DNA of 43,812 nt from positions 346,883 to 390,694 of the forward strand of contig JBOZIK010000001.1 of assembly GCA_051453625.1 (NCBI GenBank), given 5' to 3'. Below, piece by piece: positions 5,808-36,676 of the stretch; positions within the stretch are counted from its first letter, which is position 1, and the number at the start of each line of letters is the position of its first letter. Origin of the DNA: Welwitschia mirabilis. Its lineage: Eukaryota. Below the pieces are notes generated by a model. It ran no database searches, was not told the DNA's origin, and saw only the letters and a program-made list of their open reading frames with translations. A program made the position numbers and the translations under genes.

Positions 5808-5858
5808 AGTTAGAGTTTGGAGTTAAGATTTCTTAGGATCTACTAATTACTTAACCTC

Positions 5859-5870
5859 GCTCTGATATCA
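5859..5870 (-). promoter_or_regulatory. Primer-binding site (tRNA-iMet type) of the copia element
   Basis: Minus strand reads TGATATCAGAGC, one mismatch from canonical TGGTATCAGAGC, 2 nt after the LTR end ...TTCAACA. Confidence 0.85.
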
Positions 5871-5872
5871 AA

Positions 5873-7056
5873 TGTTGAATCTAGAATCTTAGAATGATTT
5901 ATATAGGATTTAAAAATAAATTGAAAAACTTCCTTCACAAAGTATTAAATCCTAAAAATATTTATACATATGAAATAACAAAAATGATCTGAAAGAAAAA
6001 TAATTGAAGCTACAGAATACCGATGAAGATTGATAGATACAAAATTTATAGTAGTTTGAGAAATTCCCTTACTTTACTCTTAACAATTAGCTTCTACTCT
6101 AGACTGACCTAGATCCTTGTTGCTTACTTTTCAGGTTTCTCATGTTTACCTATAACCTTTTGTAATTGGACTTTTAGAGGCTCAATCTCAAGCTTTAAAA
6201 AGAATGATTTTTTATGTAAATAATATGTTGTAATGCATAAGCTTCATTAGATATAAAGTAAAGAAAAGATAGTACTACACTGTCTAAAAATGATCTTACA
6301 AATCCAATTACATACAGTGCAAACTAATTAGCCAAAGGACTGATAATAAAAAGATGCTTATTCATGTTTTTAGTTAGGTTAAAGGACCACAATAATTTTT
6401 ATGACTAAATTTTATATAGGGGATATATTTTAGGGTTTTATAAGTAGATCTGATACTTAAATCAATAAAAATAAGAAGGCAATAGCTAAAAAAATTCCAT
6501 TTCTATCATAATCGATTGACCCCCTCCAAATGTCTAGTCAACTCCATTGAATACCATCACTGAAGTCTGTCGACCCCATCTTCTTCCGATTGACTTGAGT
6601 TCCTCATGTCTCCAAGTTTGATCAACTCCATCAGGGATCTGGTTAACCGCATATGTTCAAGTTTGGTTGATTGCATTTTGGTCTAGTTGACCCCATGTAA
6701 AGAATTGTTGAAAAATATTTTAGCCTTGGTCTAGTTGACCCCTTAGTAATCTAGTCAACCCTTTAATGAAAAGATTTAACAAATTATTATACAAGTCTAG
6801 TTAATCCCTTAAGAATTCCATTGATCTATTAGTAATCTGGTTTTGATACTTTTTTGTATAATTCTAGTTGATTCCTTATGAATCCAGTTGACCCCTTTGA
6901 GGAACTATAATTAATCAGGTTCAAGCATGTCTAGTGGAAAAAGTATGTTGCTTTTAACTTGCAAGGATTAATATTTTTTGCAAGGATACAACATGTTTTA
7001 CTATACTAGAAAAATGCTAGTTTGACAATATCAACTTGGCAAATTATAACTTAACA
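5873..7056 (-). repeat. 5' LTR of the copia element (~1.18 kb)
   Basis: Ends TGTTGAA...CTTAACA (imperfect TG..CA inverted termini). Left end abuts the PBS. Right end is where similarity to the Athila LTR (cf. ~13785 onward) begins. Contains many (C/T)TAGTTGACCC-type repeats at ~6510-6900. Confidence 0.75.
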
Positions 7057-7993
7057 AATAGCTTAATGTATTGCAAATAGGAATAACTTTACAACAAAGT
7101 AAGAAAAAAGCAGGAAGAACTCCTCAGCATTCCTCGGAGACTAGCTTAGAAATCCATCACAAGTTGATGCTCTAAGGTACTATAATTATCTAAGTCAAAG
7201 ATAACATGATAAAGGTTAGAAGGTTCTTTTATAGAAAGAAATGGTAAAGAANNNNNNNNNNNNNNNNNNNNNNNNNNNNNNNNNNNNNNNNNNNNNNNNN
7301 NNNNNNNNNNNNNNNNNNNNNNNNNNNNNNNNNNNNNNNNNNNNNNNNNNNAGGTACTATAATTATCTAAGTCAAAGATAACATGATAAAGGTTAGAAGG
7401 TCCTTTTATAGAAAGAAATGGTAAAGAAAGATGGTTATAAGTCCTTATCTTATAGCATTAGGTAGGCAATTATAAATTATAACATTAGGTAAGGCGATTT
7501 GTCTTCTTTCTCATTTAGTGAAGGTGCTTATGACAACGCTAAAGCTTGACTCCAGTGTACTATAGATACTATCAACTTCTATTTACACCATGCATCTCTA
7601 TTGTTGTCCTACTGAGTAATGCCATATGTCACTTTGTGAATCCTCATCATCATTTCCACATGTCATCAAGAATGTAATTGATTTTTAAGGTGGAACTCAA
7701 TCAATCCCATAACTACATTTTATCCAATTTTTCATGAGAAGCCAAGAATATAAGTTTAAAGTCAGTCTACATAGAAAGGTTGGTGATGTCGATGGTGCTA
7801 GACGACATGAAATTAAGGCATGTCCTTCAATTGAGCATAAGTTTCCTAAAAATGTCATGAAAAAATAATTAAGTGCATAATTAATATGAAAATCAATAGA
7901 AGACATGTTTTTATGGTAAAATCAATTATATTAGTGTTTATGTTTAATTTATCATTTAAACTTAATTGTAATGTCAATTTTTACATGTTAACA
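7057..7993 (-). repeat. 3' LTR (partial, interrupted by the copia insertion) of the Athila-like element
   Basis: Minus-strand start TGTTAACATGTAAAAATTGACATTAC follows GGCACTAGCAAAAAGTCAGTTAGGATGTG. Colinear with ~13785-14565, e.g. shared CATCAAGAATG(T/C)AATTGATTTTT and GCATAAGTTTCCT(A/G)AAAATGTCATG. Confidence 0.8.
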
Positions 7994-9742
7994 CACATCC
8001 TAACTGACTTTTTGCTAGTGCCTTAATAAAAAAAATGAGAATGACATAGTTAATCATGGAAAAATCATTAAAGTTAAATATGCTCAAGCATAAAAAAAAT
8101 GAAACTTCGAAAATTTTCACGATAAATTTTATGTGATTAAGACATCAAAGTAAAAAATTAAGGAAAAATTGAATGAAAATCGAGATGTCATACCACTAAC
8201 CAGAACTGAACTTTATCGTCAAAATTTATAACTTTTAAACCTTTTGAGAACATAAGCCTTAGAATGAATTGCAAAGAGTTATTTTGTTGAAAACTATGTA
8301 ACTAAGCTAAGAACTAGCTATAGTGAAAAGCTAAGGAAAAATTATCTACAGTGAAATAATGCTAAGTTGGAGGTCAGTCAATAAAAACAGTTTATGCCTT
8401 AGGAATTATTTCTTATGGAAATGATCACAAAGCAAAGTGGAGTGAAATGGAGTAAAATGGAGATGATAAATGGACTTAAACCACAAATCGATGAATAAAT
8501 GAGTAAATGTTCCTAAGTTAATAGCCCTTTATTATATTTTTATATTTTTATTAGATCACAATATCAACTAAGTGTTAACTAAGTAACTTATATGAATTTA
8601 AGAAATCAATGCAAATCCTAAGTATGAAAAGTTAAGAGACAATGGTTCATATAAAGCCTCTAATTCCCACGTTTTTAATTCCTTTACTTTTCATTTATAC
8701 CATTGCATATGTTCTTAGCATTATGCCTTTAACCGTGTTAAGCATCTAGTGTTACAATGTTTTCTACCAACAGAGTTAAGACATATTTTATTTACAGAAA
8801 TCAATGCTACATTGCCAAGTGTGTTTATAGTCCCAATGCAGTTGAAAATGTCACAATTAGATTATTAGAGCTACATTGTCAACACATGTCCAAAACTTCA
8901 ATGCAATTAACTAAACCCAACTAGCTTATTAATGTTATTTGCTTTTGAAGAAGAGATATATTATTTTCTTTTATTCATCTTCTCATAGTTATTTTTTATG
9001 CACATTACAGGGTCATTGGCTCATTAGACTAATCAAGATAAATCTTGTCCCCATCAAAATCTTGAGACTTAAGGAGTACATAAAAAGGTAAATCCTACCT
9101 TTTCAACCAAGTTTACTAAAACTAAATCTAAGTGAATGCATTCTTAATCAATGTACTCTAAATAGCATACTTTTCCTTAAAAACCCATAAGCAAACTTGA
9201 TCTTAATTATTGCTAAAGTAATAGCGAGATCACTTATTATTGATTTTTATTTAACATTCTTTAACTTAGACCAGTAATCCTTAGAATCTTATGGATTGAT
9301 GGTTTGTAGAGATGATTTATGGAATTTATGAAGTGATTTAAAAATGAATTTAATAAATGATAAGGTTTGAAAGGGTCATGGGATAAGTGACAATGATGTG
9401 ATGGGGTGCTAATGAGAAAACCATCCTTAGGAAAAGAATAGTTTTTAGGATGAATTAGGGTAGAAGACTCAAAAAAATTATGGCTATCATTTTCAGAGTC
9501 AGAGAAGTAATAATCAAAAGATAGTGAAGAATGGAAAATGTTTGGCTTGAGAGGAGAATATTTGAAATCACAAGTTTCATTTAGTTAATTAGCTTCTTCA
9601 GGATTTCTTGATAACTCTATTGCATTAAAAGTATTTAAGTTTNNNNNNNNNNNNNNNNNNNNNNNNNNNNNNNNNNNNNNNNNNNNNNNNNNNNNNNNNN
9701 NNNNNNNNNNNNNNNNNNNNNNNNNNNNNNNNNNNNNNNNNN

Positions 9743-11858
9743 GTTTAAGGTCATGTTGTCAAATGATATTTTCATTTGATCATTTCTACAATTGATTAAA
9801 GCATTTGAAGTCATAAGAAAGGGTCTTCCTAAAATGATGGACACTGAATTGTGTTTTGTTACATCCATATCTAAAACTATGAAGTAAGCCAAGAAATAGC
9901 AATTATTAACTTAAACTGTTATATCCTTAACTATTCCTAAGGATGGCTTCACAGAATTTTCTACCAAGTATAAGTAGATTTTAGTGAATTTAAGATTATT
10001 TGAGCCAAGTTTCTTAAAAATATAGTAGAGTAAAATGTTTATGCTTACTCCCAAATCTAGCAATGCTTGCTTAATATTTTTATCTCCAATTGTAATTCCT
10101 ATCAAGGGGCAACCTGGATCTTTGTCTTTAGGCAAAAGCTAGTTTTGGATGATTGTAATAGTTTGTTGAGCTAAGAAGTCTTTTCTCTTAATGTTCATAC
10201 ATCTTTTCATGGTGCACATGTTCTTAAGGAATTTTGCATAGGAAGGCACCTTCTTAATTTCTTCTAAGAGAGGGATGTTAATCTTAATTTCTTTCAAAAT
10301 TTCTAAGGCCTCAATTTGTTATTTCTCAATGTTTTCCTTTCTAAGGCATTTGGGAAAAGGTAAAGGCTCTTTGTATGTGGGCAAAGATTCTTTTAAGTTC
10401 ATTACCTTTTCTTTATTCAAAGCTTGGTGGAAAGATAAAGGTTCTTAGTAAGAAATTGTGTCTTATTATTTTTCTTTTCCCTCATCTTTAGATTTATTCT
10501 GAGTTAATCCTTGGTTAATTTTTGTACCACTTCTAAGATGAATTATCTTGGTTTATTTTAAATGGCTTAACCCTTCAGCGATAAATCTAAATCCCTTGGG
10601 ATTTGATGAATTACTCATTGGTAGTTTTTCTATTTCTCTTTGGTTTAATGATGAAAGGATGTGGATGGTGGTTTGTTGGAGTTAGTGTATGCTTTACTCA
10701 AGTCTTTGGTTTATTTATGCTTATGATTTCATGAGATTTTTAAAGGCTTCCTCCAATGGGTTAGATGAAGTCATTTAATGATTTGATAATGAAGGGTAAG
10801 GATGGAAAGATAAGGGGAATGAGTTTTTAGGCTAATAATTTTATTATGGGTTATTATCCTATTTCTAAGAGAAATTAGGAGGGTTTTGCTAAGTAGAGTT
10901 GTAAGTGTTTGAATATGAATCATTTTTAGGATTTTACCATTAGTGCCCTACCACATTTACCTACTCATTAATTTTGTTTTAGAATAGAGGAATGAAGGGG
11001 CATTCAATGATTTCATGAGTATCAAATAAGACATTTTGGTTTAATGACCATGGATGAAGGTGAAGGTGAAGTGGTGAAGAATTATACTCTTCATGATAGC
11101 TCATTTATCTTGTTGATTACTCTAAAATTTTCAAGGATCTTAAAAACACTTTTTGATCATACAAGATAGTGAGATCTTGAACGTTCAGTAGGTTTTTTTC
11201 CCAATTTTTTGAACTTTCAGCTACATTTTCTAAGTACTCCTGAACCTCATCTAAGGGCATGCTAAGAAAATTACCTTGGCTTATCATTTTAACTAATTGA
11301 TGGTTATTAGTAAACAAGCCATCATTAAAAAAACTTATTTTCATACTTGGTTCAAAATAATGTTAGGATCATTTTAATTAAAGTTCTTTTAATCATTCTA
11401 AGGTTTAAGAAAAGGTTTCATGACCCTTATATCAAAAATTCATGATTTCTTTCTTTAAGGCATTTGTCTTGTAATTGGAAAAGAATTTGAAGATAAAAGC
11501 TTCACTCAGGTATTTAAGTTATAATGGAGAAGGATTTTAGGGTGTATAACTAGGATTTTTGCTTTTCTTTCAAGAAAAGGAAAATAGGGTAAGCTTAAAT
11601 GCATGATTAGTGTTAGGATACTGAGGGATAGTTGATAGGACACACTCAAATTATTTGAGATGGAGGTATGGATCCTCAAACTCTGATCCATGAAAATGAG
11701 ACAAGAGTGGACAGCAGAGGATTTGAATTCTAGTCTCTAGTTAATGGGTGGTGGTATTATGAAACTAAATGTTTCTAGGCTTTATAATTGAAGGAATTAC
11801 ATAGGTTTTACCTAAGTTGATTAGTAGCAGTAGTGAGGGCAGCTTGTTGTTTAGCCAT
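9743..11858 (-). pseudogene. Athila-type gag and aspartic protease remnant
   Basis: Translates to LSHFHGSEFEDPYLHLK*FEC (~11640-11705), EIKINIPLLEEIKKVPSYAKFLKNMCTMKR (~10200-10292), KDPGCPLIGITIGDKNIKQALLDLGVSINIL (9911-10135 ORF) and FIVLDM...IILGRPFLMTSNALINC (9635-9892 ORF). Confidence 0.88.
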
Positions 11859-13211: not shown

Positions 13212-14565
13212 TGATAAGCCAAGGGCATACTAATAAAATTACCTTGGCTCATTCTACTACATTAGTACAATGAATCAGATTTAAAGCTAAGTTTACACTT
13301 AGCTATCATTCTTCCTCAAGTATAATATTGGTTTGGGTACAGAATTACACTAACTAAAATTTAATAAATTTATAGGTTTTAAGAAAAGGAATAAGAAAAA
13401 GAGATGGTTCTTAGAATTAGGTTTGAACTTCATCTTGAGAAAGAAGGAAAGCAAACTAGCTCAAAGGTATTATCAGTTCATCCTTAAGCAATCTTTTAAT
13501 CTAATGTTATTCAATCATCTTCTTGCAAAATACTTAAAACCATAAAGTTCTTTTAGTTTAAGTCATAAGGCATAATCTCATTCACCATCTGATATATGAT
13601 GACTCTAATGATTCTTTAGTCTTAAAATAATAATAGAAAGGAAGGACTCCTAAAGTGCTTAAGATCTATGAAATTAAAAGACTTAGGCTAAGTTATTAAA
13701 AGAAATTCACATAAATAAAATAAACTTAATGATTAAAGTAGTTATCTAAGCATTCCAATTTACTCATGAATTAAAATCAAAGAAAAATAATTTAATGTAT
13801 AGCAAAAAAAAAAAAAAAAAAACTTTACAGCAGAGAAAGAAATAATCAAAAAGAAAACCTCAACAATCCTCAAAGAGTAGCTTACTTCCCCAAAGAATCA
13901 CTTAGAAAGCCATCACAAGTCAATGCTCCAAGATTCTAAAATTCTCCAAGGCAAAGATAATACAATGAAGGGTTTTAAGGCCATTTTACAGGGAGAAATA
14001 GGAGAGAGAAGGCTTGTAACATTAGATGGAAGGTTATAGATTATAACATTAGGTAGGATGATTTGTCTTCTTTTCCATTTGGTGAAAATGCCTATGCAAT
14101 GCCAACACTTGGCTCTAAGGTGCTACAGCTACTGTCAACCACTCTTTATGTCATGTGTCTCCACCATCATCCTGCTTATCCATACCATATGTCATGTTGT
14201 AAATCCTTGTCATCATCGCCATGTGTCATCAAGAATGCAATTGATTTTTGATGCAGAACTTAATCAAGCGCATAATTGCATTTTATCCAATTTTTCATGA
14301 TAAGCAGGAACATGAGTTTGAAGGTAGTCTACACAAAAAGGCCAACATGACGGCACTAACGTTTTGACTCTGATAATTGTGAGATTAAGGAATGTCCTTC
14401 AATTAAGCATAAGTTTCCTGAAAATGTCATGGAAAAATAGTTAAATGTATANNNNNNNNNNGTCGAAAGCATGTTTTTATGGTAAAATTAGTTATATTAA
14501 TATCTTCTATTAAGGTTAATTAATCATTTAAACTTGATCGTAATGTCAATTTTTATATGTTAACG
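13212..14565 (-). repeat. 5' LTR of the Athila-like element (left boundary approximate)
   Basis: Homologous to 7057-7993. The left part (13240-13330) is the reverse complement of the LTR 3' regions at ~15230-15300 and ~26740-26800. The minus-strand end is probably ...GGCTTATCA at 13212. Confidence 0.65.
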
Positions 14566-15491
14566 GCTGTCATAAGAATCGTTTCCAAGTATAAAGGAAG
14601 ACAAACCTTTCTATCTAAATATTATCATTATGTAACTGTGGCAGTGATGGGTGGTTATAAGTCTTTCTCCCTATAAAAGGGACTGAAACCCTGAGGATTG
14701 TTAAGAAGTTCTTCTATCATCTTTCTTCCATTGTTGTAAAAGTGCTTTTATTTTCGTAATACATAAGTTGTTTGCCTTTTATTTCAAATCATAAGTAATT
14801 TTGTATTTGGAATGTTTAGGAAGCAACCTAACTATTAAAGATTTATGATATTTGAGTGAGCTCTTGTAATACTTAATCTAAGCCTTTTAACTTTACAGAT
14901 TTTAAGTGCTTGGGTCCTTACTTTCTATTATTCTTTAAGGCTTAGAAGATTAAGTGGTAACTGAGTTTACCATTACTCATGTGGTGAATGAGATTATGTC
15001 ATCATGATTTAAGCCAAAATAGTTTATGGTTTTAAGTGTGTTGTAGGAAGGCATTGGTAACATTAGAGTGAAGGATTGCTTGAGAGTGAATCAATGATAC
15101 ATTAGAGCTAGCTTGCTTCCCTCTTTCTTAGGTTAAAGTTCAAAATAAAACTTTAAAATTACCTCTTGTCTTCTTTTCTTTTCTTGAAATTTGTTCTTGC
15201 ATTAAGTTTAAGTTAGTGCAATTTTAAACCAATACCCATGTTATCCCTGAGAAAGAATGATAACTAAGTGCAAACTTAGTTTTAAATCCAAAGATTGTAA
15301 AATAATGAACACACATATTTGTCACAAAGTTTATAATTTTGATGTCTTAATTTCATAAAATTGGTCATAACTTTTTTAAAGTTTTATCACCTTTTACACT
15401 TGTACACTTTGACTCAAATAATTTTTCCATACTTAATCATTTCATTATTAACTTTTTGCTAAAGGTCTAGTAAAGGTTTAGTTAGGGGGTA
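14566..15491 (+). mobile_element. Older plus-strand LTR 3' half (14566-~15313) and short internal/PPT remnant of the same Athila-like family
   Basis: Begins mid-LTR (GCTGTCATAAG...GAAGACAAA) and has CCTATAAAAGGG. Similar to 25976-26839 and to the reverse complement of 13240-14080. 15330-15491 resembles the reverse complement of ~7995-8150 and ends in PPT-like GTTAGGGGGTA. Confidence 0.65.
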
Positions 15492-15998
15492 TGTTAACAT
15501 GTAAAAATTAGCATTCCAATCAAGTTAATGGACTAATTTATCTTAATGGAAGACATTAATATAATCGATTTTATCATAGAAACATGTCTATTATTATTTT
15601 GTTATAATAACTATGAACTTATCATTTCCCCATGATATTTTCAAGGTAATTATCACACTTTGAGGAACATTTCAAAACATGATCAACATCTAGCTTAAAA
15701 CATCAATGCCACTATACATGTCACTTGGTGTCATCGGTCCTTTTGTGCAAAACACATCAATTCTCATGTTCTTAACTTGTCATGTTTTTGTCAAATGCAG
15801 TTATTGGATTAATAAAATTTTTCTGTGTAAATAACTTGCATTTTTTACGGCATGTGGTAATGATGATAATGATGCATAGGAGTGACATGTGGCATTACTA
15901 AGTAGGATGACAGTGGAAACGCATGGTAGCAATAGTGGTTAGCAGAAGCAGCAACATCCACAAGCCAAGTATTGGCCTCATCTTAATGGTCTCTACCT
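15492..15998 (+). repeat. Athila-family LTR, 5' part (interrupted by the CACTA element)
   Basis: Starts TGTTAACATGTAAAAATTAGCATT right after the PPT-like tract and matches the reverse complement of ~7500-7993. Confidence 0.75.
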
Positions 15999-16014
15999 CA
16001 CGACTAGAGATATA

Positions 16015-16205
16015 GGCTTTTAAGAAATTTCGAAAATGCCTTAAAAGGCCTTAAAAAATGTCTTAAAAGCTTTTAAGGCATTTCTTTACAAAATGCCCTA
16101 AAAGGAGTCTCTTAAGGCATTTTTATACAAACAACTTTAAAAGTGGCTTTTAAAAATGCCTTAAAAAGTGCTTTTAAGGTGTTTCTATAAAAGCACCTTA
16201 AAAAT
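16015..16205. repeat. CACTA left subterminal repeat array
   Basis: Repeated AAATG(C/T)CTTAAAA and inverted TTTTAAGGCATTT units in head-to-head and tail-to-tail arrangement. Decayed equivalents at ~25845-25955. Confidence 0.8.
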
Positions 16206-17561
16206 GGCTCTTCTTGAAAGGTATAACTTGGATTTAAAAAAAAGTTCCATTAGGAATGTGCCTTTTGCATAGATTTATCCTAATGAAGCACTTAAGGATG
16301 ACATTCTAAGAAGCTTAGTACAACATTAGACCTTTTAATATGCATAGAATAAAAATAATGGCATTAGAAAAGATTCTGAGAGAAAGAAGCGAAATATACA
16401 AAGATATAATAAAAAATAGGTGTTGTGTTTAAAATTGGCCATAGAAATTTGTTCTAGGTGAGATAGGTATGCTCTTATCATAAGCTATATATATTCATTT
16501 TAATGCTCTTTGCAAATACTATATGGTGTAGTATTCCTTAATATTCTATAATATGCGCTATTCTTCCAATTTTCAAAATTTTACTCTCATCTGCAATGAA
16601 GAAGAACCAATTTCAATATAATGTATAGTTATTATTAGTTTTAAGATTCCTATCATCTAATTTGAAATGAAAACTCAAGAAACGGAATGAGATAGTTTTG
16701 GGATATCTTCTATATCCAAACTACTTATAAATGAGTATTGTAATATGCTACTTTAAGATGTATTTGTCACCATTGCTATATTTGTTACTGAAATAAACCA
16801 AATAAAATGAAATAAGATCTAAGGGTGAGGATAAACAATACAATGAAATTTGAATCTCGTAGAAAGTTTCCTTTTAAGCAACAGACATATTTACATTCTG
16901 TAACGTGATCTTAAGAAAACAAAAATAACTTGCTTCATTTTAAGTATGTGTTAGCTTGATATCCTAGTTTCTGGAAATTACAAAAATGCTCTATTAAAAG
17001 ATCAAATACAAAGTAAGACAATCTCCAGTTACAGCAAAAGAAAAGAAATACATAGAAAGTATCAACCTTCCTAATTTCCAAAAACATCATAGCTCTTTTC
17101 CCATGAGAGATAGCATAGAAAGGTATGCAATTACTCACTAATTAATAAAATAACTTCAGGATTCTTAATAATTTAGGAATATATTGTTTTAGTGGTCTAA
17201 TTCAACCAGACAGGGTAGTCTAGGCATGCTTTACTATGATTAAGATTCCTTCGGTCTAAGAAGGATCTTACCCAACCTAGTATGTGAATAAGGAATTTTG
17301 TTTGAGAATACTAGCATGACTAATTAATGAGAAGGATCCTATGATATCCTAATATCTTTTTTAAAACTTAAAATCCTAGCCATTTNNNNNNNNNNNNNNN
17401 NNNNNNNNNNNNNNNNNNNNNNNNNNNNNNNNNNNNNNNNNNNNNNNNNNNNNNNNNNNNNNNNNNNNNNNNNNNNNNNNNNNNNTTTAAAACTTAAAAT
17501 CCTAGCCATTTAGATCTCATAACTTGTTGTTCAACACAAAATAGGACATCGCCTAAATCAC

Positions 17562-18136
17562 CTGATCAAATGATGGCCAAGGTCTTCCTCTACCAAAATT
17601 GAACAATGTCCAAGTAGCATTTCTCAACATTGACAGTTTTGCATGTTCATTAAGTTATGCAAGCAAAGAAAAAAGAGCATTATGACTAAGAACCAGGTCT
17701 TTGCACTTTGGAGAATCACTAGCAACATTGCTCAATGCCCAAATAACCTAAAAAATATTGTTAACTCATAAATTAATTTTAGAAACATTAAGAATACAAG
17801 ATCTTGGCATCGCAACATCTAAACTAAAATATTACCTATTCATAAACATCATCACTAGAAGAACCTAACAATGGTATGGAAATTGGAACGACCCCATGAT
17901 CGATCATGACTTTTTTATGAACTAACATTTCTGAATCTATATTTGTTAAGGCTGATGCTATTACAAACTAAAATAATAGTTAAACAAAAAAAAAGAAATA
18001 ATAGCAAATGAAATAGTTCTAGCCTAACATTCATGACAAATCATAGAACACTTTCACCTGAACATTGGAAAGATCACTTTTGGTAAGAAACTGAACAAAA
18101 TGTAAGAGATCACTTCTGGAAGATGCCTCTCTCTTT
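17562..18136 (-). pseudogene. Importin-alpha (karyopherin alpha) gene fragment, three exons with introns
   Basis: Exon ~18136-18058 (ER..PEVIS / HFVQFLTKSDLSNVQ, frameshifted); exon 17967-17836 (132 nt, FVIASALTNIDSEMLVHKKVMIDHGVVPISIPLLGSSSDDVYE*); exon 17747-17562 (186 nt, [61 protein letters not shown]). These match plant importin-alpha ARM repeats ([50 protein letters not shown]). GT-AG introns of 90 and 88 nt. Confidence 0.93.
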
Positions 18137-21100
18137 CCATGATAACCATTAAAAAAAGAGAAAAATAGAAACAAAAAAGCCTTAACTCGGGAGTATGACT
18201 GTTGTTTATAGAGTTTAACAGTTTACCACCGCACAGATAGAACAGAAACAATCACACGCGGTATCTTTTGGGGCATTTTTTAGCCTATGAGTGGTCATAA
18301 ATGAAGAGAGGGGAGATGTGGGAGCACCAAGTGTGTGGGGATTTTATGGAGCTTCAAGATCTGAGTCTTTTCGCACATTAATTGACCGTGGGTCACTCTT
18401 CTCTCATCCCCGTTTTATATCCATCATTGATGCTTCTTTCAGTTGTGCTGTCATGAATTTATAGCAGAAGTTCCTTCTGAACACAGATTTTAGCTCACTC
18501 AGAATTTTTACAGTTAAAGGGTGGTGAACGATCAGATGGGCATGGTAATGCGGGAAAGTGCACCGTTTTACGGACACACCAGACACGTCAATGAAGAAAA
18601 GCAGCATCAGAATCTGACCTGGAAAACTTCAGCATTGTTTATGTTCTCGGGAGTTGCAGGGAAGCTAGTTTTGGTCAGATCAGCTTCCATGATTCTACTT
18701 TTCTTCTGGTAGCAATTGGTTACCTCTCAGAACAACGATAACGCCACTCTCAGCAATAGTAGAAGAACTGGAAGGAGCTCAAAAAGGAGTTAAGTTTTTA
18801 TCGAGATGACAAAGTGCAGGGACAAAGTGCTGGTGACAATGCCCTATGACTTTCTGCACTGAAGAGACCATCAAGATGTAAGAGATCATATGTTCTTAAA
18901 TAGCTAGAGAATGCTTCACACCTTCTCAAGTCAATGAAAAGCTTCGGTTTCTCATCTGAGAATTAAACATATGCCATAGCTCTGTGGCTCTACATAAGAA
19001 ATTTCAATTCGTTTTCATAAGAGCTTACCAATCATTATAAGTACCAAGTAATCTCCTGTTAAACACCACATTCAAGGAGTTTAAGCCATAAGAAGAGACT
19101 ACATTCATAATCTACAAGGGGTGTAGCATAATAAACTAGCATAATGGTCATACTAGGATGACCTTTCTCTAAAGTGGAATCTCACCTTGGTTTGGGCTAT
19201 GTCTTCATTCATCTATGGAATGGTTTTGCAATATCTATTGTGAATCGGATTCAAAATTTGTAGGGGTGTAGCCTTCCTCTTGGAATGACTATGACTGTGA
19301 ACATCTCCAAACTGGAACTATTATTGCCACACTCATCTCATCCTCTCGTGCCCTGAATGTGCTTGAAGAATTACCAGTGGAATCGGATTCACGTTGCATC
19401 TCAATGTGGTTGCTTACTACCATCTCAAGGTCATTCATTGAAGCTCTTGTCCTTGTCATTGGCCAAATGGGTTATTTTGAGATGTAATGCATAGATGCCA
19501 CATTAAGAAAGTTTGTGCCTTGTATTTGAAGCATTCTAGAAAGAATTTTAAGTTCTAGAAGACTGATCAAATCATATATAGATAGGCCCATTTTCTCTAT
19601 TTCTTAGTTGAATCATAGTTTAAAGGCAACCGCTTACAATTTGACATGCAATACCAAGGATACACCATTTGTTGAAGACTATTATTTCTTTCTTGATCTA
19701 AAATGGGTGGAACAGAAAATACTAGTACCTAGTTACTTAATAGCAGAGACTGAATTTTTCAGCTTAATAAGGCATGAAGTAACTTTTACTCTAGTTCTAA
19801 ACTAGGTGCTAGCCATTACGAACATCTCGTAGAATCCATTTTTGTCAATTGTCTTTCCTTATAAGATTCTAAGTTTTTGACATTATGCAAGGCTAAATAA
19901 GATTTGTCGAATGGAAGTCATTCCCTTCTATTAGATTTTGTAAGTCTGTCACTTCTTTAATTAGCAGGCATTTTACTCGATCGATTATAGGTTTTTAGAA
20001 TATCAACAAAATTAATACCGAATTATATGACTACATAGAAACTATAATCCTTTTTGGACATGTTCTACTGAAGAAATTTATCATAGGGGATGTTAAATGG
20101 TTCGACTGAAGTAGACAAGTTACAACAAAAATTCTTTGCAAAGTAAACTCTTTCCTATAGAATGCCATTTTTATTTCTATTTAGGGATTGGATTAGTTAT
20201 TACTCTTAGACTAGAGATTTCTCTAGTTACAGATGTCATTATTTATGGGAAATATCACCCCTTATGTGAGGCTCCATCATCTTAAATGAGTATTTCAAAG
20301 GCTTGGCTAAAGTAGTTTTTTAGTTAGAACAGATGCTAAAAATTCTCTAAAGTAGAAACCTTTGAAATGTTTTTATGTAAATTCTTATCTGGGTAGAAAT
20401 TATAATAGGAATAATAGAAAAATATCCAAAACATTACATTGAGAGTGCTACAGAGTTTACAAAAAGTTTAAAACCTAAAAATAAAGGTACAAAGAGAAAT
20501 GCCTTCCCTAGTAAAGAATTCAATGATGATAAACTCCAACAAGATTGAACTACTAGGACTGATAGCCATTACTTGTCTGAACCATAGTTGAAGAAGAAGT
20601 AGATATTCCATTGAAGAATGACATATGGGAAGGGCCTCTTAGTGAAGCATCAAATGGAAATATAGAGGGGGATAATGCAACAGAGTTTCACCAATGTAAT
20701 CCCTTTCATGAAAATTATGAGCAAGGTACTCATCCAAATAAAAAATGATAAAATGAAGAATCAGATGATTCTTATGCTAGAAAGAGTTTTCCAAAACAAT
20801 CTCTTAAACACGGGCCTAGAGATGAATATTTTAATAAAACACACAACAGATATCACAACCAAAGTCAAGGATGACATTTTAACTAGTGGTATTAGTTTAG
20901 AAAATGGGGTCATCTTGGAATACTAACTTTAACAAGAACAAGGTTGTAACTTAAAGCAATGGGAAAATGACTTGTATGAGTGATAGGTCCTAGGATTAAG
21001 ATTATTTATGCAAATTTACTTAGTAAATCTAGATGAAAATGTGGAATAATGTGTGCTATTGCAACCTTAATATCACTGAACTTATCATAATATATTTTGT

Positions 21101-22722
21101 TTAAGGTGAGGGCTTGAAGGACCTAATTTACCTTAAAGTATCAAGAATATTTAATTTATTGTTCAAGTCATTGAAAATGACTTTCTTGTAGGAACTAATG
21201 CTTTTATAAGACTTTTTAAGATCATTTCTTCGAATAATAAAGTGCTTTATCAATTCATCTTAGCTAAATATATTCATAAAATACAAGATTTGAGGAGTTG
21301 GTAACATAAGAACAGTAGTAAACTAATGCTGGATAGCACTTATTTCTAAGGATTATTATATTCTAATACCTACCCAACAATAGATTTAGGAGCAAAATAA
21401 GATAAATATTACTTTTTCAAGTAAATATTAGTTCACAATAATTTTTAGCATGTAAACAAAGTAAAACAGCATTCTAACAGATAACTTCTCAGTTCTGTAA
21501 TATATAACAAATGCTAAAATGAAATCACAATACAAACATATTTTTTTTAGAAATATAATGCTTATACAATGATAAATAAATTAGCTACAAATAGTGTTTC
21601 CTTTGCAAGTCATAATTGAAATGAAGAAGAGTACTCCAATATTGATCCCAAGGCTTTCTATCATTCCTAGATGTTATGCAAAGTGTGCCAAAAAGATTTC
21701 ATAATGGTAACTCTAGGTCATATTTATACTAATCTTTAGGTAATTAGAGAGAGACAACAGTTGTACAAGAATGAATAACAGCTCCTCCTATATTAAGGGA
21801 GTAAATTACCACATGTTATGCATGAATTTAGAGCAGTTAGAACATTACCTCCATTTTCCCTGTGGCACTTGATTATAATGAGATCACTTTCCTTTCTTCT
21901 CATCTTTTTGTTTTTCATTAATAGTTGTTATGACACTTGTCATTATGCTCCATGGGTTTATAAACCTGCAAAACAATAATAGTATTTTCTTTAATTACTA
22001 AGTTATGCACTATAATCAATATGTAATCCTAAATTATAATTCTAAAGTAATGCCTAAATATGAAAGATAATTGCTATATCTACGTAAGCTAAATAGCAAT
22101 TCTATGTTTCTAACAGCTGACTATGCATAAAATCTATTATTCAAAATGTAAATTTTTGCCTCATCAATGAAGAACCCTCTCCAACAAAACTAAAGAAACA
22201 AGAAACTTACCAAGGAATGATCCCAAAATGGAAATTATTGAAAAAAGTGGAGATTTGCAAGGTAGAGACAATCAAGATAAGTACACAAACAACCAAGGTT
22301 ACTCTTACAATTTATCAAAGAAATGAAAACATTACAAGCAAGTTAGTGAAAATAGCATATATCTAACATCAGGTGAAGGACGATCACAAAGAAAGAAAAA
22401 GCAAATGTTAAACTCAAGTTCTGGGCAATTACCAAGGAGAGGCAAATTGAGATCTTATAGTTCTAACTCAAAAGCTAAATAGTATTCTCATCATACGAGG
22501 AGCATAAGCAGGCTTTACCATGAGGTGTAGCTACTGATTTCCATTTAGAATATGAAGGCCCTTTTAAAAAACAAAAAAAAAAAAAAGCAAAAAAAAAAAC
22601 CCAACTATTTGTCAACAGTAAAATCTTTATTAGTTTTGTTATCCCCTCCTTTCCATGGAAAAGTATCTATAGCCTAGTTGGAGCTCGAAAGATATGAATA
22701 GCATTAAATAAGTTAGGTCATA

Positions 22723-22890
22723 GTTTTTTCCCCTAAAGGTAATGATAAGTAGGTAATTTGTGTCACACAAATGCCCAATGCTACCTGGGCCTATGAAAAC
22801 TTTCCATTTTTTATGTTCCCTGTCAATGCGAGGGTTTGAACTCTAGACCTCTGGGTCCATGTGTCTGTGACCTTACCACTCTAGTAAGCT
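22723..22890 (-). mobile_element. tRNA-derived SINE (~170 bp) inside the CACTA element
   Basis: Minus strand has A-box-like CTTACTAGAGTGGTAAGG, B-box-like GAGTTCAAACC ~33 nt downstream, a short A tail, and flanking direct repeat GTCATA (22717-22722 and 22891-22896). Confidence 0.6.
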
Positions 22891-24058
22891 GTCATAAACA
22901 TCATCATTTAGTATTATAATCCCTTTACCGTTCTTCTCTTCCCTAAATAAGCCATGACAAATATTTCTCATTGAAATTTTTTTTACTACTCCTTTTATCA
23001 GCCTTCTCAATATATTTGATACCATTGTTAAACCATAAAATCATAAATTATCTAAAAACCTACCTTCTATGTTATAGAGAACCTCCCTTCCCACTTTGCA
23101 CAACATGAAACGCATTTCAATAAAGGATGAAAAGTATTCAAAATTGTATCTTATTTGTAGACTTATTTATTTATTTATTTATTTATTGAAGGAAATTTTT
23201 TCTTNNNNNNNNNNNNNNNNNNNNNNNNNNNNNNNNNNNNNNNNNNNNNNNNNNNNNNNNNNNNNNNNNNNNNNNNNNNNNNNNNNNNNNNNNNNNNNNN
23301 NNNNNNNNNNNNNNNNNNNNNNNNNNNNNNNNNNNNNNNNNNNNNNNNNNNNNNNNNNNNNNNNNNNNNNNNNNNNNNNNNNNNNNNNNNNNNNNNNNNN
23401 NNNNNNNNNNNNNNNNNNNNNNNNNNNNNNNNNNNNNNNNNNNNNNNNNNNNNNNNNNNNNNNNNNNNNNNNNNNNNNNNNNNNNNNNNNNNNNNNNNNN
23501 NNNNNNNNNNNNNNNNNNNNNNNNNNNNNNNNNNNNNNNNNNNNNNNNNNNNNNNNNNNNNNNNNNNNNNNNNNNNNNNNNNNNNNNNNNNNNNNNNNNN
23601 NNNNNNNNNNNNNNNNNNNNNNNNNNNNNNNNNNNNNNNNNNNNNNNNNNNNNNNNNNNNNNNNNNNNNNNNNNNNNNNNNNNNNNNNNNNNNNNNNNNN
23701 NNNNNNNNNNNNNNNNNNNNNNNNNNNNNNNNNNNNNNNNNNNNNNNNNNNNNNNNNNNNNNNNNNNNNNNNNNNNNNNNNNNNNNNNNNNNNNNNNNNN
23801 NNNNNNNNNNNNNNNNNNNNNNNNNNNNNNNNNNNNNNNNNNNNNNNNNNNNNNNNNNNNNNNNNNNNNNNNNNNNNNNNNNNNNNNNNNNNNNNNNNNN
23901 NNNNNNNNNNNNNNNNNNNNNNNNNNNNNNNNNNNNNNNNNNNNNNNNNNNNNNNNNNNNNTTGTAGACTTATTTATTTATTTATTTATTTATTGAAGGA
24001 AATTTTTTCTTAATATAGCTTCCATTCCTATTACACTAACATCTGAGAAGATTCAACC

Positions 24059-24154
24059 CACATTGATATACATTGATACACATTGCTAATTTCACACTAA
24101 ATTTGTTGATACACATTGATACACATTGCTAATTTCATATTAAATTTGTTGATA
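24059..24154. repeat. Short compound tandem repeat
   Basis: ACATTGATACACATTGCTAATTTCA(C/T)A(C/T)TAAATTTGTTGATA occurs twice, built on ~10-bp ACATTGATAC units. Confidence 0.75.
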
Positions 24155-25975
24155 ACCCACCTTGGTAACCATCTTACTGGATCCAACTACACATTCAAAC
24201 GTTATGCCATCAAAAGTAGTATGCTAAATAAACTTATAAGAGGAAGGACAAAAAAATATAAAGAGAAGTAATGAGAAATATAAATATATGTGGAGTATTA
24301 GGTGATCAAATCTTTAGATATGAATACAAAGATAAAACCTACGAGGTAATTTTATGGGATAAGTCAGAAACTTATGTGGATAAATTCAAAAAACAATAAC
24401 ATTTACCTAAACAATGTTTGCGATTATGCAATTCTTAGTAGGTTCATCAAGCTTTTCAATGACCTAGCCTGATTGGATGAGGATTCCTCTAAAAAATTTT
24501 TATAGGCTTTTAGTAAGATCCCTTTTGCTATTTCATTAGGTAAGGATCCCACTTCAATCACCCATAGAAATTAATAGGTCTAAAATTAGTACTTTTTCTT
24601 AAACATTAAGTAGCTTTTTGATGCAGATTATGAGGATTCAATGGATAAACCTTATCACTGTACCATCATCCATGATTTCTCTTTTCTTATAAACTATAAA
24701 TTCTCTTTTCTTAAATAGAGGTTTTGAGTTTTAGTTAAATTTAAGCCTTATGATGCTCAAATTTTCATGAATTCCTTAAATCAAAACCTTAACTATCACT
24801 GTTAAAAAATCCCAATGGCTTGTTTTAATCCTTATTAAAAACCTTAAACCATAGCACTTCCTAGAGGAAACTATTGCACCAATCTCTTTCTCTATAAACA
24901 GGTGCACCCACAAATCCAACCTATATTCCATTGCCTTAACAAAAGAACATTACAATTAATTAATTATTTGTCATGGCATTTAATAAGTGTGTATCATTAT
25001 CGATCCATTGATATATGATTATCTAACTTTGTTATATTTTAGTAATTGCCTTTAACTAAAACTAATTCAAAATTAGCGTCGTATTTATTTTTTGGACTGA
25101 AATTACAAAAAGAAGTAGAGTTTACTTTGATCTAATGAAAAACAAAGAGAAAATTTTGCATACAACATAAAAACCATAAACACATAGGAGAGGAAAGAAT
25201 TTTTTCGTTGTTTAGAGGCATAGAGACAGACTATTCAAAGATTTCAATTAATATTCTAGATTTGAATAAAGAAATCTATCAACTATTCAAAATGTGTTAG
25301 AGTTTATGATTGTAATTGCTCTTAATTCTTATTTATATTATAAGCGATGAATCAGGATGTTGACAGACTCTCTAGAATTGATATTTAGTGATTAGAATCT
25401 GTCAATGACTGTGAGCATTTTCTGAGCATCCAGTTGTTTTGCAGAACGATATGGAGAGAACAAGCTAAAGAGTGATCCTAGAAGCATCTTCATTAAAAGT
25501 TCTATTCTTTGAAAGAATGAATACAGATAGAAACAATGAAATCTTTCTTACAAAGTAGTCGCAGATATCATTTAATAAAGAAATTACATTATCAAAAGCT
25601 AAAACTGTGAAATGTAAGCACACAGAGATTCTTAAAACAAAGAAAGAAAAGGATATAAGAAGAATACCAGAGTTTCTTTCTTTGGCAATACATTTCGTCT
25701 CTTCGTATGGGCGTTAATTTTTGTATGGTTGTTAGGGCAACCACAGTTCTTGTTGATTCTACTTAAAGATGAAATATATCTTTAAAGAAATGACTTTTTT
25801 CCCCTAAAATAACCTTTCTTTTTAAGGATTTTAATTATGAACATCTTATTAAACAATTTCAAGTCTATTCTTAAGACATTTGTATATAAACATGTCTTAA
25901 AAAGCTTTTTTTTTAACCTTTCATGTGAGCCATTTATTAAAAGAAATGCCTTAATAGACTATAATTCTAGTAGTG

Positions 25976-26839
25976 CTTAATGAAAGATGAAAAACACCCT
26001 ACCTAACACCATCATTTTGTAACCGCTTACTTAATGCTACAAGCCAAAGACTTATAAGCACCCCCACCCCCATCCTTGCCTATAAAAGGGGCTTGATCCT
26101 TTAATTATAATATATTTCATTTTATCAAAAGCACTGAACCTTTCAAGCATTAGTTATGATGGCATTCTAAGAACTTCTTTAGGGAGTGAGCTTCCTTTCA
26201 AGGATAGCTTGAGGAGTTCTTTCAGCTTTTTTCTATCTCTAGTGTAATGTGCCTTTTCTTTAATTTAATACTTAAGAGTTGTTTTCTTTTCATTATTAGT
26301 TACAAATCACTTTGTACTAGGAATGCTTAAGTAACAACGTACCTATCAAGATTCTTTAGTCAAATGAGTGAATTCAATTAGTTAATTTGTCTAAGTCTTA
26401 GCACTTTCATGGATCTTGTGCAAAATGAGTTTATACTTTTCCTTTTTATTATAGGGCTATGAAGGATCAGTGAATTTTAAATTCACCAACACTCATATGA
26501 TAAATGAAATTATGTCATCATAACTCGAGCCATCATATTTGATAGTTTAAAGTTTGTTCCAGGATCATGTAGCATATGGTCAAGTGAGGAATTGCAAAAG
26601 GATGAATTGGGTAAACACTTGGAGATTGCTTACTTCCTACTTTTCCAACACCAATTTATCAACCTCTCTTATTTTTCCCTTTTTTTTTATCATATCTTAA
26701 AATTAAGCAAGAGTTTATGTTAATTCTGTTTAGGCAATCCCAATTTTCCCTATGAAAGAACGATACTGAGTTTTAACTCATTCTTAAATCTAATTCATGT
26801 ATTAAAATGATCATTTAATATGTTGAAATCATCTAAACA
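25976..26839 (+). repeat. Athila-family LTR, 3' part (continuation of 15492-15998; right end approximate)
   Basis: CTTAATGAAAGATGAAAAACACCCTACCTAA continues the LTR consensus seen in the other copies. Has CCTATAAAAGGG and parallels 14670-15310. Candidate end ...CTAAACA at 26839. Confidence 0.7.
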
Positions 26840-27275
26840 TACGAAAATAAGATTACGGGTTAATTAAATTTCCATTAATATTAATTACTATACCCACAAA
26901 AAAATCATTCTCTTTATTATTATGCTTTAAGGGAAAATTTCCCCCCAAATAAATGGGAGTATGAAGGATGAAAAGGAGTATATTAGAAGTGGAAGAAGGA
27001 GAATGAAAATAAAAGGGTAACATCCAAAGTACAGAACACTTTTTTTTAATCCCTTAAAGGGAATTCTTTCCCTATTCATAGTGAAAATCATGTCTATCTT
27101 GATATAAGCTATGCTTGCTTACTTAGTAATGACCAATCAGCAAGAGCAATGTATTCAAAGCTTGATCTAATATTCTTCACTTAGGGATCTCAAATTTTCA
27201 ATATCTAGGATTAGGGCTTGGGTGGGCATAGCAAAAAAAGGAGGAGTTGGAGGACATGCGTTTTTTTTTTTTTTT

Positions 27276-27324
27276 TGTGTGTGTGCGTGTGGGTGTGTGT
27301 GTGTGTGTGTGTGTGTGGGTGTGT

Positions 27325-27367
<43 letters not shown>
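27276..27367. repeat. (GT)n microsatellite preceded by poly-T
   Basis: Imperfect GT dinucleotide run ending in an N gap. Confidence 0.95.
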
Positions 27368-28439
27368 NNNNNNNNNNNNNNNNNNNNNNNNNNNNNNNNA
27401 AAATGTTATATTTGACATCGAAGATTTATTAAATCCTATAGTAATAGGATCCAATGCCTAATTTCTCTTAGAACTTAACAGACATTCTTTAAATAGCATT
27501 AGCACATATGCATACCTATTATACCATTTATTTAAATAAAAAATACTAAATATAATTAATTATCCTACATCTTTAATCTTATGAAGAGCTATAAAATCAT
27601 AGCCTACCTCAAGGGCTAAGGCATCCTTCATCTTTTATCATCACTAAATTTATGTTTAGCTAAGAGTCTACCATGATCAAAGTATTATTATTTATCCATA
27701 TGTTAAAACTCTACCATTTTAAATCAAGAATTTCAATGGCTATGATGAGGGCTTATCTCATCATGAGCTTCTAAGCCTCTCTTCTCCCTCCATGGTTATA
27801 AGGGAATTACTGACTCATTGCCTCTGTCATGTTTTGCTCTAGATATTGATCTACACTAATTCAATATACTCTATAGTGCTTGCATCATTGGTGAATGCAC
27901 TTCGATCTATGATTAGATTATCTTACTTTTCCATCTTTGATTTAATTAAGATTATTAATTACGTAATAATATATTCTACACATTCTTTTGTGTTTCTTTC
28001 TTAAATCTATTCGTTAATGCTTTATAGGACTTAGATAAATGATATGTTATTTTACATGCTATCCTAGTGTTTCCTACACTTCATTGTAAGATCTAAACAA
28101 TTTTTATACTTAAATTACACTTTTATTACATTTAGATTCTACAGTGAATGACTTATTATTCAAGTATAAATCCAATCTATACTAAGTGAATTATCTACTA
28201 GTTGGTTAGGGTTTATTTGTTTGGTTGCCTTATGAATAGTCATTTATGATTTCTAGGATAAGATATTTAATCTATTGAATTTGTTCTTTAATTACTTTTT
28301 AGACTCTTCTTCTATTCAAATCTATCGTTGAAAACTTTATCAATTCTTATTACTACGAGAGAAAAATAATTAGGGTTAATTATACTACAATAGAATACCT
28401 TAGTTTCTTATTTAAAATTTCTACCTATACCTTGATGGC

Positions 28440-33464: not shown

Positions 33465-34707
33465 TGTTGTGACGCTAAATTGTATGTATTTGATGGGGTA
33501 TTTTGAGTACTTTTGCAGGACATTTAAATAGGTTTAGATGGAATTCTAAGGATTATGGAGATTTGATGGGATAATCACGGAAACATGCAATTCTTGATGT
33601 ATTTAGAGGCATTCTAGGCAGATTCTGACACTTAACATTTTAATGAGAAGACCAATGATGCAGGAGGCCGACTGCTCTTAGCGGGAAAGCTTAGGAAGCC
33701 TATTGTTCCCTAGGTCATCTAGACAATAGTCAAGATGACAGTGATGCTTACATGGACCAAGGCTGCAGGGCTGGAAGTTGATCAATCATCTCTTATTGCG
33801 GGGTATCGTCCCTAGAGTTGTCTGAATGATAGGTAGGACGATAACTATTTTATTTAAACAAAACGAATTATCTTTGTAATGGGGTCATGCACCCCATGTG
33901 GGCTGTTAGGTTTCAGCTCCAACTTCTAGGGTCTTGCTTCCAGAATCTTCAATGTAAAGCTATAAATACTCCCTTGTCCTCACTCTCAAAACCATTCTTT
34001 GTACCAGAAAGTCCTGTGATGGGATATTGAAGGATAGGAGGTCCATCCATAGCTACAAAGAGAAGTCTTCCTTAGTGTTGGGCTGTGTATCCTCCAATAA
34101 GGTGCTGCTGCTTTGTAAGTGGATGCTTGATTCATTCAAGATTAATACAAAGACTGCTTTACTTCTCTTATGTGCATCTCCTTTATTGTTCATGTTGGTT
34201 ATGATTTTGTGATAATTTCATAGTTGATCTAGATTATAAAGGCAACCTTTGTTAAGGTTGACATTATTGGTTTAGATCTTGCATTTCATTTCATATTGCA
34301 TTCCCATAGTTGCATTTATCTATATTTTATTTGATGTATCTAATAGCTTATGTTAATTAGGCTTAAATGATAGTTTTCCTAAGTGATCTAAGTTATAAGA
34401 GCTGATCTTGGTGACAGAAAGATTAGTAGTCAAATAGATTCATTATTTGCGTTTCATCTATAAGCATTGCATTATCATTCATCTTGCATCATATTCTTGC
34501 ATTGTTTTCTATTTTTATTTATTTACAGGAAAAAAGACTAAAAGTACTTTGGCAAAATCAATTCTCTAACTTCTAGCTTAGTACTTTCAACAGATTATGA
34601 CATTCGGGTTAAATTCTGTCTATATTAGTGTGTGTTTTTTTGCAAGCATTTGTGATTGATAGGAAGTGCCTAAGGACTTAAAGATTGTATAATTTCACAC
34701 GACAACA
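33465..34707 (+). repeat. 5' LTR (1243 bp)
   Basis: TGTTGTGACG...GACAACA, colinear with 41360-42610. I count 18 mismatches in the first 136 bp. TATA-like CTATAAATA at ~33960. Confidence 0.92.
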
Positions 34708-35320: not shown

Positions 35321-36676
35321 TTGATGAATAGTGATAAAAGGACCCTTAGAGAAATTCTTTCTAAAAGGAGGAAAAACTTGAAGATTTCTGAGGAACATGG
35401 TAAAAAAACACTTCGAGAAATTTTTGCAGAAAAAGGGAGGACAACACCAAATGTTGTTGAGATTAGGAATTCAGCTCCTTCCTCTTTTCAACCCCCTAAT
35501 TTTTCCTACTTTTTTAAGACTTCATATAGAAATGACAACAAAGATTTTCAAATTTCAGGGATTCCACCTCATTTAGAGAAGCATTGTATAATCGTTTTAG
35601 CAAATTCAGTCCATGTCCCATTAATTACTATGAAGAAGAAGAGCCATATCTCATGAATTACTATGAAAAAGACAATGACTCAATAAAAGAAATGAGGGAA
35701 GGGATGAAGAAGATGCGAGAAAATTTAGAAAATCAAAATAAGAAACTAGAAAATCTGATTAGGATTTTCAACAAACAATGTTACAAAATCAAGGTTTGTT
35801 TTACAACACAAAATCGTATTACATCCTACCTTGAGAAAAATGAGAAAGAACTTACGAACAAGTGACAACGATTCTTGCTTTCAAATAGAAGATGAGATTT
35901 TGGATCAAACTTCAATATCCCACTCATTAGGAGATGTCCAAAAGGAAGACAACAATGACTCAACTCAATTTTTCAACAATAAGGATCGGGATGATTATTT
36001 ATTGGATGATGATATTAAAACACTAGATTATATCATTGAAATCCATTTACTGCTAGAAAATATAGATGGAATAGAAGAATCATTTCATAAGGAATCTGAA
36101 AATTTTTCCATCTATGATGAAGGTGATACGCACATTTCTCTTAATGACCTTTTTGATGAATCTAACAACTTGGAGAATGAGAGCAATACTCAACAAGAAA
36201 AGGAAGGTATAGTTAAAAACAATGACAAGGAAAGTGGAAAAGCAATCCAACAAAGTAATGATGAAGACAATAATGAAGAAAAGGAATATAGTAAAGAACC
36301 TGTAAAGATACAATCAAACTTCAGAGAGGATAGACTTGTTCATTCTACCCATGTTTCTCCATCCCTTCCACCTATGCTTTCATGTAAGACTCTAAATCAC
36401 ATCCTTTCTTCTACTTCTACTTCCATATTACCTTGTGATCTTATAATAGTAATCTTTCTCCATTTTTTCCTTTTGAACCTTCATGTAATTCTCAAAGCCA
36501 CATCGTTTTTTTTGACTTTAATGAAGCCTAGGATTTTGAAGAGTCTATTCTTAATATCTCTCCATCTTTTCCTTTTAAAACTCCATGTGATACTCAAAGT
36601 AACATCCTTCCCTTTTCTACCAAGTCCACTTTACCTTGTGATTTTAATGATTACATTTTTTAAAAGTATGACTTGA
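35321..36676 (+). pseudogene. Frameshifted ORF in the gag position of the LTR element (basic N-terminus, coiled-coil-like part, acidic region)
   Basis: Three overlapping ORFs (35321-35656, 35584-35865, 35831-36676) appear to form one broken frame with repeated (R/K)TLREI. No canonical capsid or knuckle motif seen. Confidence 0.45.

Follow-up and report, generated by a model that had tools for sequence, protein, structure and literature searches.

Within a window of 43,812 nucleotides from Welwitschia mirabilis (GenBank assembly GCA_051453625.1, contig JBOZIK010000001.1, positions 346,883 to 390,694), the segment at 15999-25975 has inverted CACTA-type ends as its borders, lies between two parts of a high-copy repeat, and contains pieces of genes for importin-alpha and for a PMT-type methyltransferase. 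We call this segment the element. Coordinates are those of the window, the whole stretch of DNA that was analysed, which is AT-rich (~30% GC) and contains ten runs of N in a draft scaffold. DNA transposons that carry gene fragments shuffle exons, and automatic annotation often overlooks them or labels them as genes. The features at the two borders of the element are these:

14692-15998, minus strand: host repeat, left part; high-copy family of ~1.3 kb
15996-15998, no strand assigned: left copy of the target-site duplication, CCT
15999-16031, plus strand: 5' terminal inverted repeat, with a CACGA start, one substitution from CACTA
16018-16184, both orientations: 5' subterminal array of AAATGYCTTAAAA, 9 matches at up to 2 mismatches
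25820-25956, no strand assigned: 3' subterminal array of AAATGYCTTAAAA, 4 matches at up to 2 mismatches
25943-25975, minus strand: 3' terminal inverted repeat, ending ...CTAGTAGTG, the canonical TAGTG
25976-25978, no strand assigned: right copy of the target-site duplication, CTT, with 2 of 3 bases the same as the left copy
25976-26700, minus strand: host repeat, right part, continuing the left part colinearly

The left end begins at 15999 with CACGACTAGAG..., and the reverse complement read from 25975 begins with CACTACTAGAA.... Compared by script, the two ends are complementary at 26 of 33 positions (79% alike), the same count that an initial annotation of this DNA had given for its CACTA-type termini; the near-matching 3-bp flanks that it described, CCT and CTT, are likewise in place. 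When all CAC...GTG pairs separated by 1-20 kb were compared over the whole window, only two reached at least 26/33. One is formed by the ends of the element, and the other (13296/15270, 28/33) lies within inverted copies of the host repeat. Given the base composition and how many pairs were compared, we estimate that chance would produce ~0.004 pairs at this level. A degenerate pattern made from the ends occurs in the window only at the element's two ends.

Transposons of the En/Spm type have short repeats clustered just inside their ends, both direct and inverted. A 13-bp motif, AAATGYCTTAAAA, is arranged in this manner near both ends of the element. At up to one mismatch there are 13 matches on both strands of the 43.8 kb, with 8 in 16018-16166, 3 in 25869-25956, and 2 elsewhere; 11 of these 13 near-exact matches thereby fall within ~190 bp of the two ends, which bears out the subterminal repeat arrays proposed initially. 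At up to two mismatches, 29 matches are observed and 14.0 +/- 3.7 are expected.

Both flanks of the element belong to one repeat family, which has further copies in the window at 7056-8157 (copy A) and 13278-14564 (copy B). Relative to copy B, the left flank at 15502-15976 corresponds to 14555-14101 and the right flank at 25983-26700 to 14073-13379. Copy A presents the same picture, in that 15940 pairs with 7574 and 25982 with 7510. At the level of single bases, the end of the left flank and the start of the right flank meet on the same 3 bases of copies A and B, without a gap. Because the flanks continue each other with a 3-base overlap in both paralogs, we interpret 15999-25975 as an insertion with a 3-bp duplication, which has since taken one substitution. 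The initial annotation had read the site as a clean interruption of an LTR and had proposed aligning the rejoined flanks with other copies; the alignment is colinear with both paralogs. The flanks are only 62-68% identical to these paralogs, and therefore the empty-site argument relies on colinearity and not on closeness. An independent contig of 415 nt crosses the 5' junction (15648-16062) with 1 difference. A joint from 15998 to 25976, as in an empty site, is not among the 15 listed of ~1000 joints, which carries no weight either way.

The host repeat has a summed depth of 3900-9750 in sequencing runs. Its four pieces in the window (7056-8157, 13278-14564, 14692-15998 and 25976-26700) are mutually 62-72% alike, and its units are partly in tandem, since copy C has a second partial unit (15288-14692) next on its strand. 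The repeat is plausibly a long terminal repeat (LTR), as it had been called initially; the one observation that points this way is a weak minus-strand match to Retrotrans_gag (E 0.078) between copies A and B.

If the element were not a transposon, its borders would match in inverted orientation by chance, and the segment between them would owe its place to a rearrangement of another kind. Ends that are just 79% alike, and a 5' end that is not exact CACTA, are compatible with such an origin. Against it stand the rarity of end pairs of this quality, the clustering of AAATGYCTTAAAA at both ends in both orientations, the precise colinearity of the empty site with its 3-bp duplication, and the highly repeated state of the 5' subterminal region in three DNA runs, described below. 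We regard this explanation as extremely improbable.

The interior of the element holds the following features:

17386-17485, no strand assigned: gap of 100 N, with an exact 26-bp duplication at its edges (17360-17385 = 17486-17511)
17559-18102, minus strand: importin-alpha fragment in three exon pieces, residues ~121-242 of a 488-amino-acid importin alpha-2
18843-19120, minus strand: PMT-type methyltransferase fragment in two exons, residues 468-524 of a 597-amino-acid PMT20-like protein
19164-19463, no strand assigned: block resembling expressed RNA, roughly 85-95% like, with RNA depth 15-21 and loose ends at 19164 and 19463
20980-22080, no strand assigned: high-copy repeat block, nested or captured, with approximate borders; single-copy contigs stop at 21008 and resume at 22053
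22800-24005, no strand assigned: second high-copy block, including a gap of 757 N at 23205-23961
24916-25340, no strand assigned: block resembling expressed RNA, covered by RNA at a depth of about 13-14, with a loose end at 25340

The three importin-alpha pieces were located by tblastn, with residues ~121-140 at 18102-~18040, 141-181 at 17967-17839, and 181-242 at 17744-17559. The last of these is 77% identical over 62 amino acids and contains one stop; in sequence searches of the PDB it matches rice importin alpha-1a (4bpl_A) with E 3.6e-26, and the middle exon matches with E 4.5e-6. The pieces are separated by retained spacers, in-frame stops are present, and the same region gives weak Arm matches in the Pfam frame scan. 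The importin-alpha fragment of the initial annotation is thus real and consists of three exon pieces. The methyltransferase fragment was recognized through the frame at 18801-18962 (minus strand), which matches Pfam family PF03141, Methyltransf_29 (E 1.3e-6; 27.7 bits, cutoff 23). By tblastn, residues 468-498 lie at 19120-19028 (61% identity, one stop) and residues 499-524 at 18920-18843 (92%), again with the spacer retained. A 627-nt genomic contig from a different locus aligns with 17813-18122, through a spacer of the importin-alpha fragment, with 44 differences, which fits the capture of genomic DNA and not of mRNA.

Host-gene cargo in place of a transposase had been proposed at the outset, and both halves of this proposal agree with our searches. 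When 112 stop-to-stop frames of at least 33 amino acids were compared with Pfam, no frame matched a CACTA transposase family, Transposase_21 and Transposase_24 included, at E<=1. Six read-through frames, with X at stops, matched only Methyltransf_29 (two frames) and Arm (one) in Pfam, and importin-alpha was the only match of six frames in the PDB searches. Judged by these comparisons, the element lacks a recognisable transposase, which it has lost or never had, and with it the TnpD (Transposase_21) and usually TnpA (Transposase_24) by which an autonomous CACTA element is defined.

These searches also bear on the idea that the element is an ordinary autonomous CACTA in decay, with an interior that is mainly eroded TnpD and TnpA and with gene-like pieces that are incidental. 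A length of ~9 kb is within the size range of autonomous elements, 857 bases are N, and for most of the interior no homology could be assigned. Yet no CACTA transposase family was detected in the 112 open frames or in the six read-through frames, and the only significant protein homologies are to two host genes, so we consider this explanation very unlikely.

The importin-alpha and methyltransferase fragments are both internal parts of genes and lie ~740 bp apart, and because of this the interior is a mosaic and not one contiguous captured locus. It comprises intron-bearing pieces of two or more unlinked genes (the two named ones read on the minus strand), at least two blocks resembling expressed RNA, and two blocks of unrelated high-copy repeat. 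Base composition also varies, as the initial annotation had remarked when it spoke of a compositional mosaic: GC per kb in the interior is 0.28, 0.28, 0.40, 0.35, 0.32, 0.28 and 0.33, i.e., from 0.28 to 0.40. Part of this interior, in addition to the gene fragments, is unrelated high-copy repeat.

The mosaic could in principle have been assembled differently, if a plain non-autonomous CACTA element had later received the fragments from a nested Helitron or Pack-MULE. Two unrelated high-copy blocks inside the element imply that nesting or repeat capture took place, and a weak 19-nt inverted match (84%; 17359-17377 and 19542-19560) surrounds the block of gene fragments. However, the AT-rich DNA contains 107 inverted pairs, this one overlaps the duplication at the edge of a gap, long inverted repeats of the MULE type or duplications were not found around the gene-fragment block, and the depth of the cargo is low, unlike that of a repeated carrier. 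A nested carrier as the source of the gene fragments is accordingly unlikely, a little less so than a decayed autonomous element.

At 18265-18282, between the importin-alpha and methyltransferase fragments, the region of the subterminal motif recurs once on its own, inverted. This copy is 18 nt long and 89% complementary to 16087-16104, and no CACTA end lies beside it. It may reflect chance or may be a relic of an internal element end.

Read data give a further view of the interior. The contigs of three DNA runs and the raw reads of one RNA run were aligned to 14500-27500 at a likeness of at least 85%. Depths are summed contig depths and not copy numbers, with single-copy contigs at ~3-5. The element is partly present in 13 of the 24 sequencing runs listed, which belong to 4 studies under two organism labels. 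Summed depths along the element are as follows:

16166-16170 (5' subterminal array): about 1000-4200, high in three DNA runs
16236-20575: 4-24
21010-22311: 400-2450
22312-22745: about 2-6
22746-23179: 944-1278
24048-25783: 0.3-23

In one set of alignments, 27 contigs match inward from 16006 and are dissimilar outside (agreement 0.52), a pattern that fits other insertions of the element's family. Neither internal high-copy block has similarity elsewhere in the window, where this was searched. We attribute to chance a 22-nt stretch of the left flank that is matched in inverted orientation at 22260-22281; in a sensitive search, 20400-24300 showed nothing further similar within the window. An A-rich tract of ~34 nt (22566-22599) ends one low-copy stretch of the element, perhaps as the tail of a retroposed sequence.

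RNA reads pile up on the importin-alpha piece, on the methyltransferase piece, at 19164-19463, near 22831-22882 and at 24916-25340, with sharp loose ends that resemble exon borders. Of 687 aligned reads, only 2 are at least 99% alike and 467 are less than 90% alike, and at the positions listed every RNA read differs in letter from the window. Because the reads diverge from the window in this way, they stem from related expressed parent sequences elsewhere and not from this copy. There are essentially no reads matching this copy in the one RNA run, which is not evidence of silence. The read-through translation of 19164-19463 in the minus frame has 0 protein matches among 1.84 billion representatives, and that in the plus frame has 98 candidate proteins, none at E<=0.1.

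The length of the element requires correction. The initial annotation gave ~10 kb, which agrees with the span 15999-25975, but 857 of these 9977 bases are N in two runs, both of which are probably spurious. The gap at 17386-17485 has the 26-bp edge duplication listed above, and the gap at 23205-23961 has an exact 50-bp duplication at its edges. Since exact duplications bound both N runs, the real length is ~9.0-9.1 kb. A third N run in the window, at 7252-7351, is likewise edged by an exact duplication, of 77 bp. Such duplications suggest overlapping contig ends left unmerged in scaffolding, and the gap lengths are probably artefacts. Just past the second gap is a 43-bp tandem repeat (24063-24154; 2.1 copies, 93% matches).

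Taken together, the evidence leads us to a probability of roughly 0.85 that 15999-25975 is a single non-autonomous, Pack-CACTA-like transposon of the CACTA (En/Spm) type, with gene fragments as its cargo and no transposase. The element was inserted by a cut-and-paste reaction into the high-copy host repeat, giving the 3-bp target-site duplication. Its movement was presumably driven in trans by an autonomous member of its family elsewhere in the genome. By analogy with En/Spm, the subterminal motifs are putative binding sites of a TnpA-like protein. The gene pieces may have been acquired at the DNA level, as proposed for elements of the Pack type. One proposed route to such cargo is that two neighbouring insertions are mobilised together as one element (PMC6379663, PMC8903248; these and the other papers are cited from excerpts). 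Relics of internal ends, which would show this two-insertion route, were not seen in the element. The copy is old and decayed, because its ends are only 79% alike, its duplication is mismatched, its gene fragments contain stops, and it has diverged from the expressed parents. It is probably inert.

Several observations weigh against this interpretation. The 5' end is CACGA instead of CACTA (1 of 5 bases off), the target-site duplication is imperfect (CCT/CTT), and the paralogs that serve for the empty-site argument share just 62-68% identity. An element with both ends is known here from one copy, and packFinder, as described in an excerpt of its publication (PMC8903248), discards singleton elements as possible false positives and requires a cluster with the same ends. 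The named genes account for only ~0.8 kb of ~9 kb, the two blocks resembling expressed RNA lack a protein homologue, and the 857 N could conceal sequence. Part of the cargo could have arrived through later nested insertion and not through capture. The frame at 18407-18628 (minus strand) has a weak match to DDE_1 (E 0.11; 12.5 bits, cutoff 22), a pogo-type and not a CACTA-type domain, and this match is absent from the read-through search. Finally, the depth bin at the 3' terminus is confounded by the high-copy flank, and summed contig depth is not a measure of copy number anywhere in the element.

A more ambitious proposal is that the element belongs to a large undescribed Pack-CACTA family of this plant, with hundreds of copies that have these subterminal motifs in common and varied gene mosaics, and that its co-oriented methyltransferase and importin-alpha pieces, with the transcribed block next to them, are spliced into chimeric transcripts in some tissue. 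If true, this would be an exon-shuffling system comparable to soybean Tgm-Express, and we consider it unlikely.

A metagenome scan for further copies, with a degenerate 26-letter end pattern returned 0 stretches, and the matches listed in a literature search for the end motif include no transposon-related title. A second metagenome scan, with a paired-motif pattern, returned 15 stretches that were rejected as unrelated hairpins, in which the pattern alone matches and nothing else of the element does.

The window has protein homologies to plant proteins and to retrotransposon domains. A remnant of a Copia-type retrotransposon occupies 3178-5594 on the minus strand, with matches to Pol_BBD (E 7e-18), a zinc knuckle and Retrotran_gag_2, and is broken by an N run at 3913-4620. 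Direct repeats at 33467-34707 and 41362-42610 are 81% identical over 1267 nt and look like the two LTRs of a ~9.1-kb element. A 305-amino-acid open frame between them (35759-36673, plus strand) has no Pfam match at E<=0.01. In the window there are 0 Rfam matches at gathering thresholds and no tRNA genes, and the tandem repeats are unremarkable.

In practical terms, the importin-alpha and methyltransferase pseudo-exons can be masked in gene prediction, and the ends together with the subterminal motifs can be used for a genome-wide collection of the family. The element is well delimited and its empty site is demonstrable. CACTA elements that carry gene fragments are already well known in plants, so this element adds another example, and knowledge of how such elements work is unchanged.

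The Tpn1 family of Japanese morning glory consists of non-autonomous CACTA elements with host gene fragments that were recently active and cause visible mutations. The Welwitschia element is also a carrier of gene fragments, but it looks old and inert, and it is likened to Tpn1 by description and not by sequence.

In the CACTA superfamily, elements have 5'-CACTA...TAGTG-3' termini and inverted repeats of 10-54 bp, according to an excerpted account (PMC4938662). Features of this superfamily present here are the CACTA-type ends, the 3-bp duplication and the subterminal arrays. Within the superfamily, pvCACTA1 of common bean (PMC4938662) resembles the element as a non-autonomous CACTA with 3-bp duplications in an AT-rich genome. 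pvCACTA1 is a very abundant family in a dicot. Its members are small, with inverted repeats of 145-158 bp and WWW duplications, whereas the element is large, carries gene cargo, and has an inverted repeat of ~33 bp and a C[C/T]T duplication.

Tgm-Express1 of soybean (Zabala & Vodkin 2007, PMC1947982, in excerpt) shares with the element its CACTA ends and several unrelated gene fragments in which exon/intron structure is retained. It is 5.7 kb long and resides in an F3H intron, and splicing joins its fragments into chimeric transcripts. The element, in contrast, sits in a repeat, and only 2 of 687 RNA reads match it at 99% or better; the two are likened by architecture and not by end sequence.

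Pack-CACTA elements of Arabidopsis thaliana and of maize and rice (Catoni et al. 2019, PMC6379663; Gisby & Catoni 2022, PMC8903248) have the same type of ends and 3-bp duplications, a host-gene interior that often derives from multiple loci, no transposase, and an interior less repeated than the ends. In the excerpted description of packFinder, an element is classed as Pack-TYPE when it has a valid match to a host coding gene and no match to a transposase (PMC8903248). With matches to importin-alpha and PMT, and no transposase recognised in its sequence, the element would be placed in this class. Its cargo is chromosomal DNA with introns, possibly from several loci, which is a trait of Pack-type elements. 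Elements of this type are described as having low-copy interiors and more repeated ends (PMC8903248), and the same pattern is seen here, with the 5' subterminal region highly repeated, two internal blocks likewise, and the remaining interior low copy. The element differs in that its ends begin CACGACTAG and CACTACTAG, as opposed to the CACTACAA core given in the excerpted Pack-CACTA papers (PMC6379663, PMC8903248), and in that it is larger (~9 kb) and contains nested high-copy repeats.

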